Below are positions 3,528-12,008 of a stretch of DNA of 12,008 bases, piece after piece (the stretch's first letter is position 1; every line of letters begins with the position of its first letter). A program made the translations under genes and the position numbers. This DNA is from a virus (Duplodnaviria > Heunggongvirae > Uroviricota > Caudoviricetes). The stretch is taken from the IMG/VR virus record IMGVR_UViG_643348545_000014; one strand, 5' to 3'. Under the pieces are notes generated by a model, which ran no database searches, had not been told where the DNA came from, and was given only the letters and a program-made list of their open reading frames with translations.

Positions 3528-3827
3528 ATGAGAACATATTTATCTGGCTTGACTGCCAGCGGTTATGCACACCCCAAAATTATCCCCGGCGCTATTTATC
3601 TGGATAAGAACGGTAACAGAGTAACGGTAAAAGAACTGATGTTTGACCGTGTTTATTTTATCCGTGATGGATATTCATTTCTTAGTTCGCTGAACGTGGA
3701 GATCTTTATTTGCAGATTCCGGCGGGAAATCCCGACTTCCAGAAATAACCATGTGTCACGTGTGGATGTGGATAAAAAACTACAGGAACTGAAAAACATG
3801 ATTGCCGCGTGGAGAGAGCAGAAATGA
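3528..3827 (+). CDS. Hypothetical protein (99 aa)
   Basis: GGGGA RBS 9 nt upstream; its stop overlaps the primase ATG (ATGA), indicating translational coupling. Confidence 0.5.
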   Translation: MRTYLSGLTASGYAHPKIIPGAIYLDKNGNRVTVKELMFDRVYFIRDGYSFLSSLNVEIFICRFRREIPTSRNNHVSRVDVDKKLQELKNMIAAWREQK

Positions 3828-5965
3828 AAAAAGCGCCAAATTTAAAACACCAGCCGCGTGACAAAATGACGGAAGTCATCATTTTTGCGGGTAGTGATGC
3901 CTGGGCACATGCGAAACAGTGGCAGGAACAGGACGGGCGACTGGCTGGCGATAACGTGCCTCCTGTCTGGCTTGGAGAGCAACAACTTGCCGAACTGGAT
4001 AAGCTGCAAATTGTGCCGGAAGGCCGAAAATCAGTACGCATATTCAGGGCCGGACATCTTGAGCCAGTAATGATCAAGGCGATTGGTCAGAAGCTGGCGG
4101 CGGCAGGCGTACAGGATGCAAATTTTTACCCTGATGGAATGCACGGTCAGGAGGTGGAGAACTGGCGCGAATATCTGGCCCGTGAGCGGCAGAATCTTTC
4201 TGATGGTCTGGTTATTGAGTTTCCGGTAAAGAAAAAAGATACCGGAAGCCATAGCGATGACGAATTAAAGCCACGCGTTGAAAGTCGCGCCGATGGTGTT
4301 TTCTGGGTAACGCCCAAAGTGGATAAGCAGTCAGGCGAAATTATCCGGCCTGAGACGTGGTTATGTTCTCCGCTTGAACTACTGGGAACGGGGACGATCG
4401 GTAAAGAGCATTACCGCGTCATGCGCTGGAAAAAATTAGCAAATCATGAAGTCATCACAATGGCGATCCCGTGTGGTGGCATTGGCGACCGTGACGGCTG
4501 GCGGTTGCTTAAAGATCACGGGCTGAACGTGACAACAAACGGCAAATACAGGGCTATCCTGGCTGACTGGATGCAGTTAAGCGGAAGCCATGAGGAATGG
4601 CAGTTAAGCACAACAACGGGCTGGCATTTTGACGCGTACATCATGCCGGACGGTTCAATCATTGGTGATTCTGAAAAACCGATCCTGTTTACCGGAAAAA
4701 GTGCCGCTATTAATGGCTATTCGGTTGCGGGTACGGCGGAGGGCTGGCGCGACAGCGTGGCGCGGCTGGCTGGTGGCAATCCGTCCATGATGCTGGGTAT
4801 TGCCACGTCACTGGCAGCACCGTTGATTGGCCTTGTTGGTGCTGACGGCTTCGGGGTACATCTTTTCGAACAGTCATCGGCAGGGAAAACCACCACGCAG
4901 AACATCGCATCAAGTTTATGGGGAGAGCCAGACTCACAACGGCTGACCTGGTACGGCACAGCGTTAGGTATCGCTAACGAGGCAGAGTCGCACAACGACG
5001 GGCTGTTACCCTTGGATGAAATAGGCCAGGCCGGAAACGCGCGGGAGGTGTCCACGTCAGCCTATACGTTGTTTAACGGTTCCGGGAAATTACAGGGGGC
5101 GAAGGACGGCGGCAACCGGGAGATAAAACACTGGCGCACGGTGGCAATCAGCACCGGAGAAATGGACGTTGAGACATTCCTCAAAACGGAGGGGATAAAA
5201 GTCAAAGCGGGGCAGCTTGTCCGCCTGCTTAACGTTCCGATGGAAAAAGCCACGCACTTTCACGAATACAGCACCGGAAAGGCGCACGCAGACGCGTTAA
5301 AGGATGCCTGGACAGAAAATCACGGGGCAGCGGGTCGTGAGTGGGTTAAATGGCTGGCAGGCCACCAGCAGGAGGCAAAGGATACGGTAAGGGAATGCCG
5401 CGAACGGTGGCGCAACCTGATACCGGAGAGCTACGGCGAGCAGGTCCACCGCGTGGGTGAGCGTTTCGCCATACTGGAGGCCGCGCTTGTGCTTTCCGGT
5501 CATGTAACTGGCTGGGCCGCGCAGGAATGCCGGGACGCAATACAGCATAACTTTAATGCCTGGGTGAAGGAGTTCGGCACGGGTAACAGGGAATTTAAAC
5601 AGATGGTTGAACAGGCTGAGGCGTTTTTGTCGTCGTTCGGGTTCAGTCGATACCTTCCTTACCCAAACAGTGATGAACGTGATTTACCGATTAAAGACCT
5701 TGCCGGATACAGAAAGGGGAGTATCAGAAATGAAGATGATGAGTTCCGTTTTTACACGTTTCCTCATGTGTTTGAGGGGGAGATCGCACAGGGATTTAAC
5801 CCGTCCCACTTTGCCCGCGCGTTGAGTGCTGCAGGAATGCTGGAAGCGGGTAACGATCGCCGTTACAAGAAAAAGGCGCTCGGCAAAATTGGGGGGAAGC
5901 AGCATGTTTTTTACGTACTGATGTTCCAGCCTGAGGCAGAAGATTACCCCCCCTGTGTGAGGTGA
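3824..5965 (+). CDS. Satellite replication protein: primase/replicase with a P-loop NTPase-like segment (Pri-Rep-like)
   Basis: About 713 aa from ATG 3824 (GGAGAG RBS; the ORF track begins at GTG 3809). Contains a P-loop-like SSAGKTT. Large size, position after alpA, and the iteron array immediately downstream all fit a replication initiator. Family assignment is by layout and motif only. Confidence 0.75.
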   Translation: MKKAPNLKHQPRDKMTEVIIFAGSDAWAHAKQWQEQDGRLAGDNVPPVWLGEQQLAELDKLQIVPEGRKSVRIFRAGHLEPVMIKAIGQKLAAAGVQDANFYPDGMHGQEVENWREYLARERQNLSDGLVIEFPVKKKDTGSHSDDELKPRVESRADGVFWVTPKVDKQSGEIIRPETWLCSPLELLGTGTIGKEHYRVMRWKKLANHEVITMAIPCGGIGDRDGWRLLKDHGLNVTTNGKYRAILADWMQLSGSHEEWQLSTTTGWHFDAYIMPDGSIIGDSEKPILFTGKSAAINGYSVAGTAEGWRDSVARLAGGNPSMMLGIATSLAAPLIGLVGADGFGVHLFEQSSAGKTTTQNIASSLWGEPDSQRLTWYGTALGIANEAESHNDGLLPLDEIGQAGNAREVSTSAYTLFNGSGKLQGAKDGGNREIKHWRTVAISTGEMDVETFLKTEGIKVKAGQLVRLLNVPMEKATHFHEYSTGKAHADALKDAWTENHGAAGREWVKWLAGHQQEAKDTVRECRERWRNLIPESYGEQVHRVGERFAILEAALVLSGHVTGWAAQECRDAIQHNFNAWVKEFGTGNREFKQMVEQAEAFLSSFGFSRYLPYPNSDERDLPIKDLAGYRKGSIRNEDDEFRFYTFPHVFEGEIAQGFNPSHFARALSAAGMLEAGNDRRYKKKALGKIGGKQHVFYVLMFQPEAEDYPPCVR

Positions 5966-6563: not shown

Positions 6564-6986
6564 ATGACAGCACAGATAGCGGCTTACGGGCGGCTGGTGG
6601 CTGACCCGCAGTTAAAGACCACCAGCAAGGGTACACAAATGACGATGGCTAGTATGGCGGTCCCCCTTCCGTGCAGCCAGGCAGATGACGGAACGGCGAC
6701 GATGTGGTTATCCGTCCTGGCGTTTGGCAGACAGGCCGACGCACTGGCAAAACACCACAAAGGCGAACTGGTGAGCGTGGCGGGTAACATGCAGGTAAGC
6801 CAGTGGACAGGCCAGAACGGCGAAACGCGGCAGGGCTGGCAGGTTATCGCAGACAGCGTAATCAGTGCGAGAACGGCGCGACCGGGCGGCAAAAAAGGCC
6901 AGCAGGGGCAGGCTACTGACGCACTGAACAGGGCAAAACAACAGGCGGGTAACGATGATCCGTACGGGGATAACATACCGTTTTAA
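6564..6986 (+). CDS. ssb: Single-stranded DNA-binding protein (SSB-like, OB fold)
   Basis: WLSVLAFGRQADALAKHHKGELVSVAGNMQVSQWTGQNGETRQGWQVIADSV aligns with the E. coli SSB core [50 protein letters not shown] (recalled). The C-terminal tail DDPYGDNIPF resembles the SSB DDDIPF tail. Confidence 0.75.
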   Translation: MTAQIAAYGRLVADPQLKTTSKGTQMTMASMAVPLPCSQADDGTATMWLSVLAFGRQADALAKHHKGELVSVAGNMQVSQWTGQNGETRQGWQVIADSVISARTARPGGKKGQQGQATDALNRAKQQAGNDDPYGDNIPF

Positions 6987-7401: not shown

Positions 7402-7608
7402 ATGGCTGAAGAGAAAAAAGGCGGTATTTCGGTGTACATAAGCCCCGACATCGTGAAGGCGCTCAAGGAACGCCACCAGCAGAACGTAAAAGCAGGCATT
7501 GCGGCAGGACTTGATCCGCTGGCGATGGTTGAGCCGTCAACAGGCTGGCAGGTACGCGCCTATTTACGCGCGGCGCTGGGTATGAATCAGGTTCACGGGG
7601 GTGAATAA
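7402..7608 (+). CDS. Hypothetical small protein (68 aa) translationally coupled to the major capsid gene
   Basis: AAGAGG RBS; its stop overlaps the capsid ATG (TAATG). Function unknown. Confidence 0.5.
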   Translation: MAEEKKGGISVYISPDIVKALKERHQQNVKAGIAAGLDPLAMVEPSTGWQVRAYLRAALGMNQVHGGE

Positions 7609-8663
7609 TGACAGTAAAAGCAATATCACTTAACACTAACCAGCTTTTTGCGTACCTGAATCGCGAGGATATTGCGGAATTTAAATTCAGTCCGCTGTTT
7701 ACCGCGCTGTTTTTCCCGAACGTGGCGACATTCAACACACAGGACATCATGTTAGATAACCTGGATATTGAAGAAGTCACTATGTCGGCGTTTTGTTCGC
7801 CTATGGTGGGTAGCCAGGTTCAGCGCGATAAAGGGTACGAAACAAGCATTATTCGCCCTGGCTACATGAAGCCAAAACACGAAATCGATCCATTAAAAAC
7901 AATAATGCGCATGGCTGGAGAAGATCCAGCACAGCTTAACGACCCTACCTACCGCCGTATGCGCCTGATTACTGGCAACATGCGCCGCCAGATAAACGCC
8001 ATTAAAGCGCGCGTGGAATGGCTGGCGGTAAATGCGGTAACGACCGGAAAAAACATCATTGAGGGCGAAGGCATAGAGCGCTATGAAATCGACTGGAAGA
8101 TACCGGAAAAAAACATCATAGAGCAGGCCGACGGTAAAAAATGGTCAGAGCAGGACAAAGACATACACGACCCAATCTATGACATTGAGCTATACGCAGA
8201 TCAGGCAGGTTGCCCCGCAAACGTCATGATTATGGGCGTTGATGTATGGCGCATGTTACGCAGCTTTAAAAAATTCCGTGAACTGTACGATCTCTCCCGT
8301 GGTTCAGAATCCGCCGCAGAGCTGGCATGTAAAAACCTGGGCGAAGTGGTGAGCTTTAAAGGCTATCTTGGTGATCTGGCCCTTATCGTCTATTCCGGCA
8401 AATACACTGACAGCGACGGCACAGAAAAATATTTCCTTGAGCCTGATTTGCTGGTCCTGGGCAACACCAACAATAAAGGGCTGGTGGCCTATGGTGCGAT
8501 TATGGAACAGGAAGCGGTAAGAACGGGCGCAACGCAAAACATGTTTTACCCGAAAAACTGGATTGAGGACGGCGATCCGGCGATTGAGTACGTGCAGACG
8601 CACAGCGCACCGCAGCCGGTTCCGGCAGATATTCGCAAATTTGTTACCGTCAAAATTGGTTAA
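7608..8663 (+). CDS. Major capsid protein, lambda gpE-like
   Basis: 351 aa. Multiple conserved blocks against lambda gpE (recalled): FKFSPLFTALFF vs FKFDPLFLRLFF; PGYMKPKHEIDP vs PGYVKPKHEVNP; EDPAQLNDPTYRRMR vs EDPQNLADPAYRRRR; GYLGDLALIVYSGKY vs GMYGDVAIVVYSGQY; YPKNWIEDGDPA vs YPKNWVTTGDPA. Confidence 0.9.
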   Translation: MTVKAISLNTNQLFAYLNREDIAEFKFSPLFTALFFPNVATFNTQDIMLDNLDIEEVTMSAFCSPMVGSQVQRDKGYETSIIRPGYMKPKHEIDPLKTIMRMAGEDPAQLNDPTYRRMRLITGNMRRQINAIKARVEWLAVNAVTTGKNIIEGEGIERYEIDWKIPEKNIIEQADGKKWSEQDKDIHDPIYDIELYADQAGCPANVMIMGVDVWRMLRSFKKFRELYDLSRGSESAAELACKNLGEVVSFKGYLGDLALIVYSGKYTDSDGTEKYFLEPDLLVLGNTNNKGLVAYGAIMEQEAVRTGATQNMFYPKNWIEDGDPAIEYVQTHSAPQPVPADIRKFVTVKIG

Positions 8664-8675
8664 CGGGGGGATTCT

Positions 8676-9011
8676 ATGGACACTCCATACATTGAGTTAT
8701 TTGCAGGCAGTCAGCAGGTATCCACGACGCTGGTACATTTTGCCGCTGATGCTGGCGTTATTCAGGAATTTACCCCGCTGATGCTGGCGGACAATGGCGA
8801 GTTTAAGCCGTGGGATGGTCAGGAATCTGGCAAGGCTGTTTATCTGACTTCGTACCCCGTGGACACGTCAAAGCAGAAATCAGCACAGTGTTACAAGACG
8901 GGGATATTTAATATCGCCGCCGTAAACTGGCCTGAGAGCGCCGACACTGACGCGAAAAAATGCGCCGCCTTTGCGGGTTCTGGCGTATCCGTTCAGCCGC
9001 TGGCGCGATAA
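8676..9011 (+). CDS. Head decoration protein, lambda gpD-like
   Basis: 111 aa. Matches to lambda gpD (recalled): TPLMLAD vs TPLMLD, WDG, YKTGIF vs YKSGTF, WPESADTDAKKCAAFAGSGVSV vs [28 protein letters not shown] RBS. Confidence 0.8.
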   Translation: MDTPYIELFAGSQQVSTTLVHFAADAGVIQEFTPLMLADNGEFKPWDGQESGKAVYLTSYPVDTSKQKSAQCYKTGIFNIAAVNWPESADTDAKKCAAFAGSGVSVQPLAR

Positions 9012-9023
9012 GCAGGGGAAACG

Positions 9024-9437
9024 ATGGCAACGAATGAAAGCATCATGGCGCTACCGCTGGCGAGTAAATTTAAAGCAGAAGCGCGGGCAATGGCTGACAG
9101 AGGTTTATCAACCTACGAGGCCGTATATCAACTCAACAAACTGGAAGAACAGGACAAGCCGCGCGCTGATGCGATTATGGCGCTTCATGAACATAACGAC
9201 TATCAGCCGCTGTTACGTGCAATGGCAAACGTGCCATGTATTAGCGTCGATAATGCTCGTGAAATCCTGAACATGACCATAGAGCAGGAGCGCCCAAAGG
9301 TTGCACCAGAGCTTACCGCAGCCTTTGAAAACTTTATGGACATGCACAGCCCGCAAGCCGTATCAGCTGGCATGGCGTACGATGGCAGAAACCAGGGCGA
9401 TGACGGCGACATCGATCGCATACTGAAAACCATCTGA
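9024..9437 (+). CDS. Hypothetical protein (137 aa), last gene of the head operon, immediately upstream of cos
   Basis: AGGGGA RBS; followed by a terminator and cos. No family recognised; its position is analogous to lambda FI. Confidence 0.55.
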   Translation: MATNESIMALPLASKFKAEARAMADRGLSTYEAVYQLNKLEEQDKPRADAIMALHEHNDYQPLLRAMANVPCISVDNAREILNMTIEQERPKVAPELTAAFENFMDMHSPQAVSAGMAYDGRNQGDDGDIDRILKTI

Positions 9438-9442
9438 GACAA

Positions 9443-9467
9443 GGCCGGAGAAATCCGGCTTTTTTTT
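9443..9467 (+). terminator. Rho-independent terminator
   Basis: Stem GCCGGA / TCCGGC, loop GAAA, then T8. Confidence 0.6.
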
Positions 9468-9667
9468 ACGGGTCCTTTCCGGCATATGGACCCGTTACGG
9501 GGCGGCGACCTCGCGCGTTTTCACTATTTATGAAAATTTTCCGGGATCCATGTCCGGTTTCTCTGCAAGTTAACCATATGAAAAATATAAAAACATGCTT
9601 TCTATGAACCGGACATGCGCAAAAAACAGACACTAAAACCGGACATCGTACCCGTTAACCGGAAGTG
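9468..9667 (+). other. Lambda-type cos site (cosQ-like, cosN, and a cosB-like region with distinct repeats)
   Basis: ACGGGTCCTTTCCGG ... CCGTTACG|GGGCGGCGACCT CGCGCGTTTTCACTATTTATGAAAATTTTCCGG is near-identical to the lambda cos junction as recalled; the 12-nt cohesive-end sequence is at 9500-9511. Downstream are four AACCGGACAT-like elements (9550-9559 inverted; 9607-9616, 9637-9646, 9658-9667 direct) around an AT-rich segment, resembling the lambda R3-I1-R2-R1 layout but with a different repeat sequence. Confidence 0.8.
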
Positions 9668-9839
9668 TGCAAAAATCACACGCATTGCTGCGCGTGATTA
9701 ACAATTTATCGGCTTTACTGTTCTGTATAGGCTGGGTGGCGTCATGCCGTAGCCGTTCTCCGTGCCAGCATGGAATAATCCGTAGTTACAGAGCGGTAAA
9801 GTTAAAAATCACTTTCTGTTACGCCATCAAATACGCGAT

Positions 9840-10066
9840 ACAACAACCTTGTGTTTTTACAAAACCATTTGATATCATTGAATTTTTTCACATTAATGAC
9901 ATCAAAATACATCGTAAGGTTGTTGTATTTATTTTATTTTTACCTTACTTATCAATTAGATATACCAAACAATTAAACAACAACCACCCCCTCAAAAAAT
10001 CTCATAAATAGCGAAAAACCGCGAGGTCGCCGCCCCGTAACGGGCCATAATTCCAGGAAGGACCCG
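9840..10066 (-). other. Second cos-like site in inverted orientation (cosQ-like, cosN-like, and its own three 9-mer repeats)
   Basis: 10020-10044 is the exact reverse complement of 9491-9515 (25 bp). The reverse complement of 10012-10066 reads CGGGTCCTTCCTGG..CCCGTTACGGGGCGGCGACCTCGCGGTTTTTCGCTATTTATGAGATTTTTT. Adjacent repeats ACAACAACC at 9840-9848 and 9977-9985, GGTTGTTGT at 9918-9926. Confidence 0.6.
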
Positions 10067-10099
10067 ACGACACCAGACTATCAGAACGATGGGGGCACA

Positions 10100-10381
10100 A
10101 TGACAGAAGCCGAAATACTGGGATTAATCCGCCGCGTTGCCGGAATCAGCCAGCAGGTTGACGAACAGGCCACGCAGCCGGACAGCGTGACCGCTGAAAA
10201 TTATGCGCGTGTTGTTGCGGAGGTGATGCGCCGTGATGGTATAGAACTTAATGGCGTGGATATGCGCAACATACGAACCAGAGTTCTTGAGTTGCTGGCC
10301 TACCGTCGCCGCGTGGAGATGTATCGGGAGAAGGAGAAAATAACGTACCACTGGAAGAAGCCGGAGCGGTTGCGGCGGTAA
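10100..10381 (+). CDS. Hypothetical protein (93 aa) downstream of the cos pair
   Basis: GGGGG RBS 4 nt upstream of the ATG. Charged, helical-looking sequence; no family recognised. Confidence 0.5.
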   Translation: MTEAEILGLIRRVAGISQQVDEQATQPDSVTAENYARVVAEVMRRDGIELNGVDMRNIRTRVLELLAYRRRVEMYREKEKITYHWKKPERLRR

Positions 10382-11190: not shown

Positions 11191-11432
11191 TAAATCCCGA
11201 TATGGTGATCCCCATATCGGGGAACATCCACCAGCTTAAAAACGAATGAGCGAAAAAAATCCAGGTAGAATTATGGAAGTCGCTAGGGCAATCGCCGTTT
11301 AAATTGTGCATTTTTTCAGCAAATTATTTTAGTTATACGTTTGGTTATACGGTTTAAAAGCTGAATCGATAATATTGATTAAAATCATACTGTTACACGC
11401 TCAATTAAACTACTCTCGTGAAAAATCCCAAG

Positions 11433-11522: not shown

Positions 11523-12008
11523 TCAGAACGTCCAGACCACACCCGCCTGAGTTGTGCTGCTTTCTTCACGGGAGAAACGGCTGTCGATACCGAGCGTCAG
11601 GCCCGTCAATGTTTGCTCAAAGCCAGCTCCCGCATCAGTGTTCACGTTGTTGCGGCTGTTAATTACCGAACTCCACATCGCCGTATCGTAATTAACGCCT
11701 TTTACGCTACCAAGACGCCCACGCACGGTGTCCAGTTCTGCATCAAATACCAGCGGTTGTGCTGCCGCCATATTCAGCACATCCGTGGTTGAAGGGGGCA
11801 TTTGTACGCGATTCTCTGCGAGACTCCAGCTATGGTTGCCATTATCCAGCAAGGTATATTCATACGTACTGATATCAACAACGCTTCCGGCATTGCCCAA
11901 CGTAAATGCCGCATCACCGCGCCCTCCTTTAATCGTGGGATCAGTCGCCGCGCCATAAACCTGTAGCACTCCATTATTGATCGTAGTCTGGTTTACCGCG
12001 CCACCCAT
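11523..12008 (-). CDS. C-terminal 161 aa of an autotransporter-like outer-membrane beta-barrel protein; possibly a truncated gene or fragment, with the true start perhaps beyond the window
   Basis: YTLLDNGNHSWSL junction-like motif, then AMWSSVINS...AGFEQTLTGLTLGIDSRF resembling the first barrel strands of AIDA/Ag43-type autotransporters, ending in VVWTF with a terminal aromatic. Double stop TGA TAA. Only about 60 residues follow the barrel start, far fewer than the ~250 of a full barrel. Confidence 0.45.
   Translation of the reverse strand: MGGAVNQTTINNGVLQVYGAATDPTIKGGRGDAAFTLGNAGSVVDISTYEYTLLDNGNHSWSLAENRVQMPPSTTDVLNMAAAQPLVFDAELDTVRGRLGSVKGVNYDTAMWSSVINSRNNVNTDAGAGFEQTLTGLTLGIDSRFSREESSTTQAGVVWTF

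Follow-up and report, generated by a model that had tools for sequence, protein, structure and literature searches.

The window analysed here is the whole 12,008-nucleotide stretch of viral DNA deposited as IMG/VR record IMGVR_UViG_643348545_000014 (Caudoviricetes). It carries two lambda-type cos sites, each with cosQ, cosN and a candidate cosB, which lie convergently between positions 9465 and 10070 with cosQ on the outside and cosB on the inside. Gene order and sequence agree with EcCICFT073 and its relatives, and by this comparison the window is an E. coli cos-type phage-inducible chromosomal island (PICI) of the EcCICFT073 family, approximately 11 kb long and running from the integrase gene at 1-1242 to roughly position 11,250. 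We propose, with a probability of about 75%, that the two opposed cos sites form a packaging module in which both are functional, each for the terminase of a different helper phage. An earlier note on this DNA had raised packaging by two helpers in opposite directions as one hypothesis. It fits all of the comparative evidence presented below and is well supported by it, each cosB being a near-copy from a different group of lambdoid phages or prophages.

The features of the cassette are as follows, with repeats numbered relative to the first cosN base of their own copy:
9500-10035: cassette bounded by the two cosN sites, 536 bp
9465-9480, plus strand: cosQ, TTTACGGGTCCTTTCC, 16/16 identical to lambda cosQ as defined in Fig. 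S1A of PMC6739421
9500-9511, plus strand: cosN, GGGCGGCGACCT, inside the 25-bp repeat 9491-9515; rightward packaging predicted
9545-9670, plus strand: candidate cosB of the PhiR12 / EcCICFT073-cos2 type; recognition by the small terminase protein (TerS) predicted from sequence
9550-9557, plus-strand site: R-like element ATGTCCGG at +51
9609-9616 and 9639-9646, plus-strand site: R-like elements CCGGACAT at +110 (inverted) and +140
9659-9666, plus-strand site: degenerate R-like element CCGGAAGT at +160
10055-10070, minus strand: cosQ, TCGTCGGGTCCTTCCT, a variant identical to the cosQ of EcCICFT073 cos2
10024-10035, minus strand: cosN, inside the 25-bp repeat 10020-10044; leftward packaging predicted
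9838-9990, minus strand: candidate cosB of the N15-like / SCU-171-prophage type; TerS recognition predicted from sequence
9985-9977 and 9848-9840, minus strand: R-like elements GGTTGTTGT at +51 and +188
9926-9918, minus strand: R-like element ACAACAACC at +110, inverted

A repeat search paired 9469-9540 with 9995-10066 as the arms of an inverted repeat of 72 nt that is 83% complementary. Within it, 9491-9515 and 10020-10044 are exact 25-bp reverse complements, as had been claimed, and the exact match extends no further on either side. By our own estimate, the chance expectation of such a repeat in 12 kb is about 6e-8. Alignment to the lambda genome ends, which the earlier note had proposed as a check, was made using NC_001416 with both ends joined. 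The cohesive-end 12-mer GGGCGGCGACCT, which is the lambda left end, is matched at 12/12 positions in the plus and the minus copy. From +13 to +45 the identity to lambda is 31/33 in the plus copy and 27/33 in the minus copy (82-94%), and the 45 nt on the cosQ side agree at 29/45 and 24/45 positions, respectively. Past +46, identity to lambda is at chance level and the two copies also differ from each other. The match of 9468-9545 to lambda had been described as almost base for base; the similarity is real but slightly overstated, as a hand count gives about 87% and the 11 nt separating cosQ from cosN are not those of lambda. The opposite-strand cosQ/cosN copy that had been placed near 10012-10066 is confirmed by the identities above.

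Both copies therefore possess the cosN 12-mer, a cosQ at the lambda spacing and a candidate cosB with the order R3, bend, R2, R1. The plus-copy cosQ core is unchanged from lambda, and the minus cosQ retains the GGGTCCTT core at the lambda distance. In lambda, R3, R2 and R1 are found at +53, +114 (inverted) and +155; similarly, the first R-like element of each window arm lies near +51 and an inverted second one near +110, across a spacer with an A+T content of 73% in the plus arm and 84% in the minus arm compared with 73% in lambda. For the CCGGACAT/ATGTCCGG motifs the window has four occurrences where 0.38 would be expected, three of them within 9550-9646, and ACAACAACC/GGTTGTTGT occur three times against 0.10 expected, all inside 9840-9985. 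These counts, well above expectation and at lambda-like positions, bear out the claim that each copy is followed on its packaging side by short repeats that differ between the arms. The window departs from lambda in that its R sequences are unrelated to the lambda CGTTTCC, in having two cos sites instead of one, and in that neither cosB leads into terS.

For each arm we found a helper-type phage or prophage whose cos is near-identical, specificity determinant included, and the cosB similarity runs to the base at which the phage terS begins. Over 184 bp, the plus arm shares 94% identity with the PhiR12_1 cos, immediately upstream of Nu1/terS, and cos sites of this type are present in phages PhiR12_1, _2, _2_star, _4 and _5. 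It is also 94% identical to the reverse complement of cos2 in CFT073. The minus-arm (B3-type) cosB is present in 299 of 5,426 complete E. coli genomes. In SCU-171 and O111:H- 11128 it lies directly upstream of terS-terL-W-portal of a lambdoid prophage; the window arm is near-identical to both prophage cos sites from cosN through the third R and diverges at the terS ribosome-binding site. The first minus-arm R element, at +51, equals the proposed N15 R3 segment GGTTGTTGTTTAAT, which is located at +49 in phage N15; the single TerS site of N15 has been placed in a span including +49 (Murialdo and Feiss 2022, PMC9026076). Besides this shared element, the DNA-binding domain of SCU-171 TerS is 64% identical to N15 gp1. 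The window arm and its cognate prophages differ from N15 in having three R copies in a lambda-like geometry where N15 has one, and in the cohesive end, which in N15 is GGGCGGCGTCCG.

The two cognate TerS proteins, from PhiR12 (locus L005, 3233-3742) and the SCU-171 prophage (locus L007, 4193-4699), both belong to the Phage_Nu1 family. They are identical at 93 of 101 C-terminal positions, and their first ~60 amino acids, which form the DNA-binding domain, are unrelated. As judged from this pattern lambdoid TerS proteins are modular, each N-terminal domain being apparently paired with its own cosB. We predicted that TerS DNA-binding domain and cosB type co-occur and then checked this in 50,697 phage records, where the predictions for both arms held. 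The PhiR12-type domain is found at 100% identity in the same five records as the plus-arm cosB and in no others. The best match to the SCU-171-type domain is only 64% identical (N15, Enterobacter phage MStein-2023a), and, as for close relatives of this domain, the minus-arm cosB was not found in these records. The nearest relatives of the PhiR12-type domain, at ~50%, are from Aeromonas and Pseudomonas phages.

In EcCICFT073 the cosB of one site, cos1, is recognized by a heterocomplex of the island protein RppA and the helper TerS (PMC6739421). RppA, a protein of 144 amino acids, is missing from the window, and neither tblastn with RppA and an RppB-like protein nor a TerS search detected an intact rpp or terS there. 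The 137-aa and 93-aa proteins encoded next to the cassette were considered as Rpp candidates and rejected, since comparison with the solved RppC and with PDB chains gave no match for either. Because the island has neither Rpp nor a TerS of its own, it would be recognized directly by the native TerS of whichever helper type replicates in the cell. cosQ and cosN at each site would be used by the lambdoid large terminase (TerL). With a PhiR12-type terminase the predicted nick is at 9500 and packaging would proceed to the right; with an N15-like-type terminase the nick is expected at 10035, and packaging would proceed to the left. In either direction the concatemer would yield complete island units. 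The convergent orientation would allow sites with identical cohesive ends to coexist: by analogy with the established polarity of lambda cos, a cos read backward should be unable to end packaging, so that packaging would not start at one site and stop at the other, an event that would delete or duplicate the DNA between them.

Packaging of a satellite lacking its own specificity factor through a copy of the helper's cos has parallels in SaPIbov5, as cited in PMC6092414, and in the helper-embedded PICI 11capE (PMC10111431). At cos, the latter and its helper have 258 bp in common, with 90% identity (PMC10111431). The window differs from both by combining two helper-type copies from two specificity groups in opposite orientation.

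Two functional cos sites, cos1 and cos2, have been described for EcCICFT073 (Fillol-Salom 2018 ISME J, PMC6092414; 2019 Mol Cell, PMC6739421), and either one, when cloned, makes a plasmid transferable by lambda and phi80 (PMC6092414; PMC6739421). Induction, excision, replication and helper transfer were shown for this island itself, and its transfer is lowered by deletion of cos1 and abolished by the double deletion (PMC6092414). According to the authors, a phage cosB is unrecognizable in either site (PMC6092414; PMC6739421), and the review by Murialdo and Feiss covers only the cos-rpp site (PMC9026076). We found no description of the orientation of cos1 and cos2, of inversion or of the PhiR12 phages in the open-access literature. 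In the CFT073 genome the two sites are convergent, in the order cosQ-cosN-cosB1 with GGTGACACCACCACCAC, rppA and the reverse complement of cos2, whose cosB bears CCGGACAT repeats. The island of NCTC86 has cos1-rppA on the left and a ACAACAACC-type cosB on the right. The window thus shares with EcCICFT073 the family, the gene order, the convergent lambda-type pair and, on each side of the backbone, the same cosQ variant. It differs in three respects: the Rpp-specific cosB (GGTGACACCACCACCAC) followed by rppA in CFT073 is absent, neither arm having the cos1-type motif; the cos2-type cosB is on the opposite side of the backbone; and the second arm is a third cosB type, ACAACAACC, common to NCTC86-type islands.

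CFT073 also has a resident lambdoid prophage next to icd (locus L003, 44712-44935). The R-like elements of its cos, GTGTCGGTAC, GGTCCGACATG and CATGTCGGGCC, resemble the CCGGACAT elements of cos2 without being equal to them, which indicates that the island cos2 was not copied from this neighboring prophage.

Between the arms of the window lies one trace of rpp, detected by tblastn:
9731-9796, plus strand: rppA 3' remnant, codons 123-144 of 144 (22 codons), with an internal stop

Just before it, ~9700-9718 is the reverse complement of the final ~19 nt of CFT073 rppA. The forward orientation of the remnant rules out an origin of the window by simple inversion of the CFT073 cassette. Rather, from its junctions the window cassette is seen to be a chimera in which a flipped CFT073-type arm meets an NCTC86-type arm within the rppA remnant, and the ~9700-9718 piece and the remnant are best described as an imperfect inverted duplication marking the junction of the two parental cassettes.

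In order to follow the pair through the family, we searched the 5,426 genomes with the two backbone flanks of the cassette only, and found both flanks close together in 580. This query matches ~1,383 E. coli genomes, many of them via the 93-aa gene only, without the capsid-side flank. Flank distances fall into classes: ~1,740 bp, with a full terS between the cos sites, is the commonest in the sample (O157, O26, O145, O55, ATCC 25922); ~1,600-1,630 bp corresponds to rpp types; and 1,401 bp, the window type, is rare. One forward and one reverse cosN were present in 9/9 island loci examined, which represent five cassette types, while prophage and phage loci have a single cos each. Related islands lacking the inverted copy, which would have spoken for a strain-specific rearrangement, were thus not encountered among these nine. 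In O157:H7 SS52 a full-length Nu1-family terS of 180 amino acids is situated between the convergent sites, following the plus site (locus L006, 9300-10178). Its plus arm has the motif GGTGGTGGTGGTGG, and its minus arm has a fifth R motif, AGGATCTGA, three times at +52, +113 and +152; the best similarity of this minus arm to a phage cos of the collection is only ~72%. In Ch1 (NZ_CP127316.1) both cosN copies contain the identical substitution GGGCGTCGACCT (locus L025, 700-711 and 1460-1471), which may reflect gene conversion between the arms or, alternatively, adaptation to a helper whose cohesive end has this sequence. Outside the species, a peptide-pattern scan for the 93-aa protein in one-genome-per-species contigs gave no match, and an exact 20-mer cosN scan gave 12 single-cos loci and no paired site; the convergent pair is therefore documented here in E. 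coli only.

The conservation of the pair bears on whether one site alone serves the island and the other is a functionless passenger left by recombination with phages or islands, which we regard as unlikely. Although the window cassette is visibly recombinant, with its flipped CFT073-type and NCTC86-type arms joined inside the rppA remnant, and although CFT073 cos2 is dispensable with lambda and phi80, both window copies have every part of a cos site and are near-identical to phage sites that work, and the pair is kept in every cassette type examined. In addition, the Ch1 cosN copies share the same substitution rather than one of them decaying, and transfer of the CFT073 island is abolished only when both sites are deleted. 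The alternative in the earlier note, one copy as a recombination remnant, is for its part not favored given the completeness of both copies and the pair in all nine loci.

A second, phage-identical cos could also act mainly as a decoy that titrates or misdirects the helper terminase in order to interfere with the phage. Interference with helper packaging is general among PICIs; in Rpp, this island has lost the known interference factor of the family and so would need another route of interference, and a multicopy replicating island with the exact cosB of the helper would compete for TerS. However, a complete cosQ-cosN-cosB is equally what productive packaging requires, and the cloned CFT073 sites yield transfer, which goes beyond inhibition. 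A mainly inhibitory function thus seems quite improbable to us, and packaging and decoy roles are in any case compatible.

Some observations weigh against two functional sites for two helpers. The window's rpp-less cassette type is found in only ~11-14 of the 580 islands. Deletion of cos2 raised transfer of EcCICFT073 by lambda and phi80 (PMC6092414), so by analogy a non-cognate second cos site can be a burden to an island. In the plus arm we found no IHF consensus at up to one mismatch; the I1 region of lambda itself matches only with one mismatch, so this absence carries little weight. For the window as well as for the PhiR12- and N15-like-type helpers, TerS binding specificity is deduced from sequence identity only. 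Finally, at least one host of the window cassette type, CEA601S, shows no other lambda-type cos in its genome, so that any helper there would need to enter by infection.

Both orientations of the cassette occur among the genomes. STEC2018-607 contains the 536-bp cassette of the window with three single-nucleotide differences but inverted relative to the backbone, with breakpoints within the 25-bp core, and JNEC-KY203 has the same match pattern. A synthetic flipped CFT073 cassette gave an end-to-end, single-piece match in 15 genomes at 97.7% identity. The native orientation was matched with at least 80% query coverage in 68 genomes, which may include NCTC86-type islands sharing cos1-rppA. WP4-S17-ESBL-08 encodes the same RppA protein accession as CFT073 on the opposite strand; the crossover in its island is not placeable because one cosQ spacer type is present on both sides. 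In the flipped CFT073-type cassette rppA is antisense to the late operon.

A different type of exchange was observed in 2012C-4221 (NZ_CP027437.1). Its plus arm consists of a PhiR12-type cosB and the first nine codons of PhiR12 terS (VATQTEVAR), fused in frame to the C-terminal (dimerization) half of rppA at the 9-nt microhomology TTGCCAGGC; the fusion is annotated as an open reading frame of 69 amino acids (locus L024, 877-1086). Judging from this junction, the locus preserves an event in which an island captured a phage cos, and it represents a second, independent route to an rpp-less pair of arms. Comparison of these loci shows that the cassette inverts and that cosB modules move, both from island to island and from phages into islands, with the shared cosQ/cosN as the apparent recombination handles. 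Inversion probably occurs, in the simplest case, by homologous recombination across the 25-72 bp repeats. Inversion driven by terminase is chemically possible, as a double cosN cut would leave an inner fragment with two identical overhangs.

Known invertible segments such as Mu G, P1 C and the shufflons, which have invertases, are likewise short, bounded by inverted repeats and found in both orientations across genomes; the repeats of the window differ in being predicted terminase substrates. The inverted cos repeats might serve mainly as an inversion switch for cassette genes, rpp or terS in the relatives, with packaging by two helpers secondary. The two orientations, window type and CFT073 type, and the antisense rppA of flipped cassettes are in line with such a switch. 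It is nonetheless very improbable: the window cassette has no gene on which a switch could act, the scanned open reading frames of the window yielded no site-specific invertase, and the flipped forms look rare and clonally inherited, unlike phase variation, the 15 genomes all being at one identity. Overall, packaging by two helpers fits the completeness and conservation of both arms better than a passenger, a decoy or a switch.

As an extension of the two-helper reading we tentatively suggest, though we consider it doubtful, that the opposed pair is an exchangeable, invertible helper-specificity cassette. An island replicating beside a helper would recombine at the shared cosQ-cosN and import the cosB of that helper. 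In the boldest form, terminase itself would cut both cosN sites and drive inversion and exchange: the inner fragment, with two identical 12-nt 'left-end' overhangs, would religate either way or be replaced. If true, this would be a built-in way for satellites to retarget to new helpers.

The remaining features of the window support its assignment as a PICI:
1-1242: tyrosine integrase with Arm-DNA-bind_3, Phage_int_M and Phage_integrase domains, at the left end of the island
Within the window: an Ash-family protein and a DUF4222 protein
3809-5965: DUF927 primase, the island's own replication module
6564-6986: SSB
7608-8663: lambda E-like major capsid protein
8676-9011: lambda D-like decoration protein
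9024-9437, plus strand: 137-aa gene, left flank of the cassette and backbone marker, phrog_1999
9441-9467, plus strand: intrinsic terminator (stem-loop and T-run) from a terminator scan, closing the capsid/decoration/137-aa operon
10100-10381, plus strand: 93-aa gene, right flank of the cassette and backbone marker, phrog_1561
11523-12008, minus strand: yejO autotransporter gene fragment with pertactin domain, chromosomal right flank

An integrase at the left end and an own replication module are accompanied by cos downstream of the capsid and decoration genes, and the set of virion genes is incomplete: no portal, terminase or tail gene was found in the window, whose structural genes are the E-like capsid, the D-like decoration protein and one small head-related gene. 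This last gene is by synteny the homolog of the CFT073 gene between c1500 and rppA. The 137-aa protein weakly resembles phrog_53, a head maturation protease family, in the C-terminal part of the latter, and some RefSeq genomes label its homologs 'phage head-tail connector protein'. In EcCICFT073, deletion of the capsid or decoration gene left interference unrelieved, and the island is packaged in phage-sized heads (PMC6092414). The T-run of the terminator overlaps into the plus-site cosQ. On the other side, the 93-aa gene adjoins the outer side of the minus-strand cosQ and is conserved in every island locus examined; the protein has no related solved structure. Homologous islands are located between tRNA-Pro/yejM and yejO. 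Their similarity to the window ends near 11,250, where the right attachment site should therefore be found. The exact mosaic of the window is absent from the 5,426 genomes, the best match covering 68%.

That islands of the EcCICFT073 family have two cos sites with different cosB was already known (Fillol-Salom 2018, 2019). In the open-access literature we did not find an assignment of both arms, and with them the published cos2, to cognate phages, nor any account of a double-mimic variant without rpp, of the family-wide convergent design, of the inverted forms or of the preserved capture event. The comparison offers a concrete answer to a question left by the published work, namely why there are two cos sites and what the 'non-essential' cos2 recognizes. 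Should the two arms match the terminases of different helpers, short, swappable DNA modules would encode the helper range and Rpp would not always be needed. This would help to predict which prophages mobilize which islands and the virulence or defense genes they carry, and to design PICI-based delivery particles whose helper range is selected or widened. How quickly phages and their parasites can re-assort packaging specificity is evident from the inversion and capture events.

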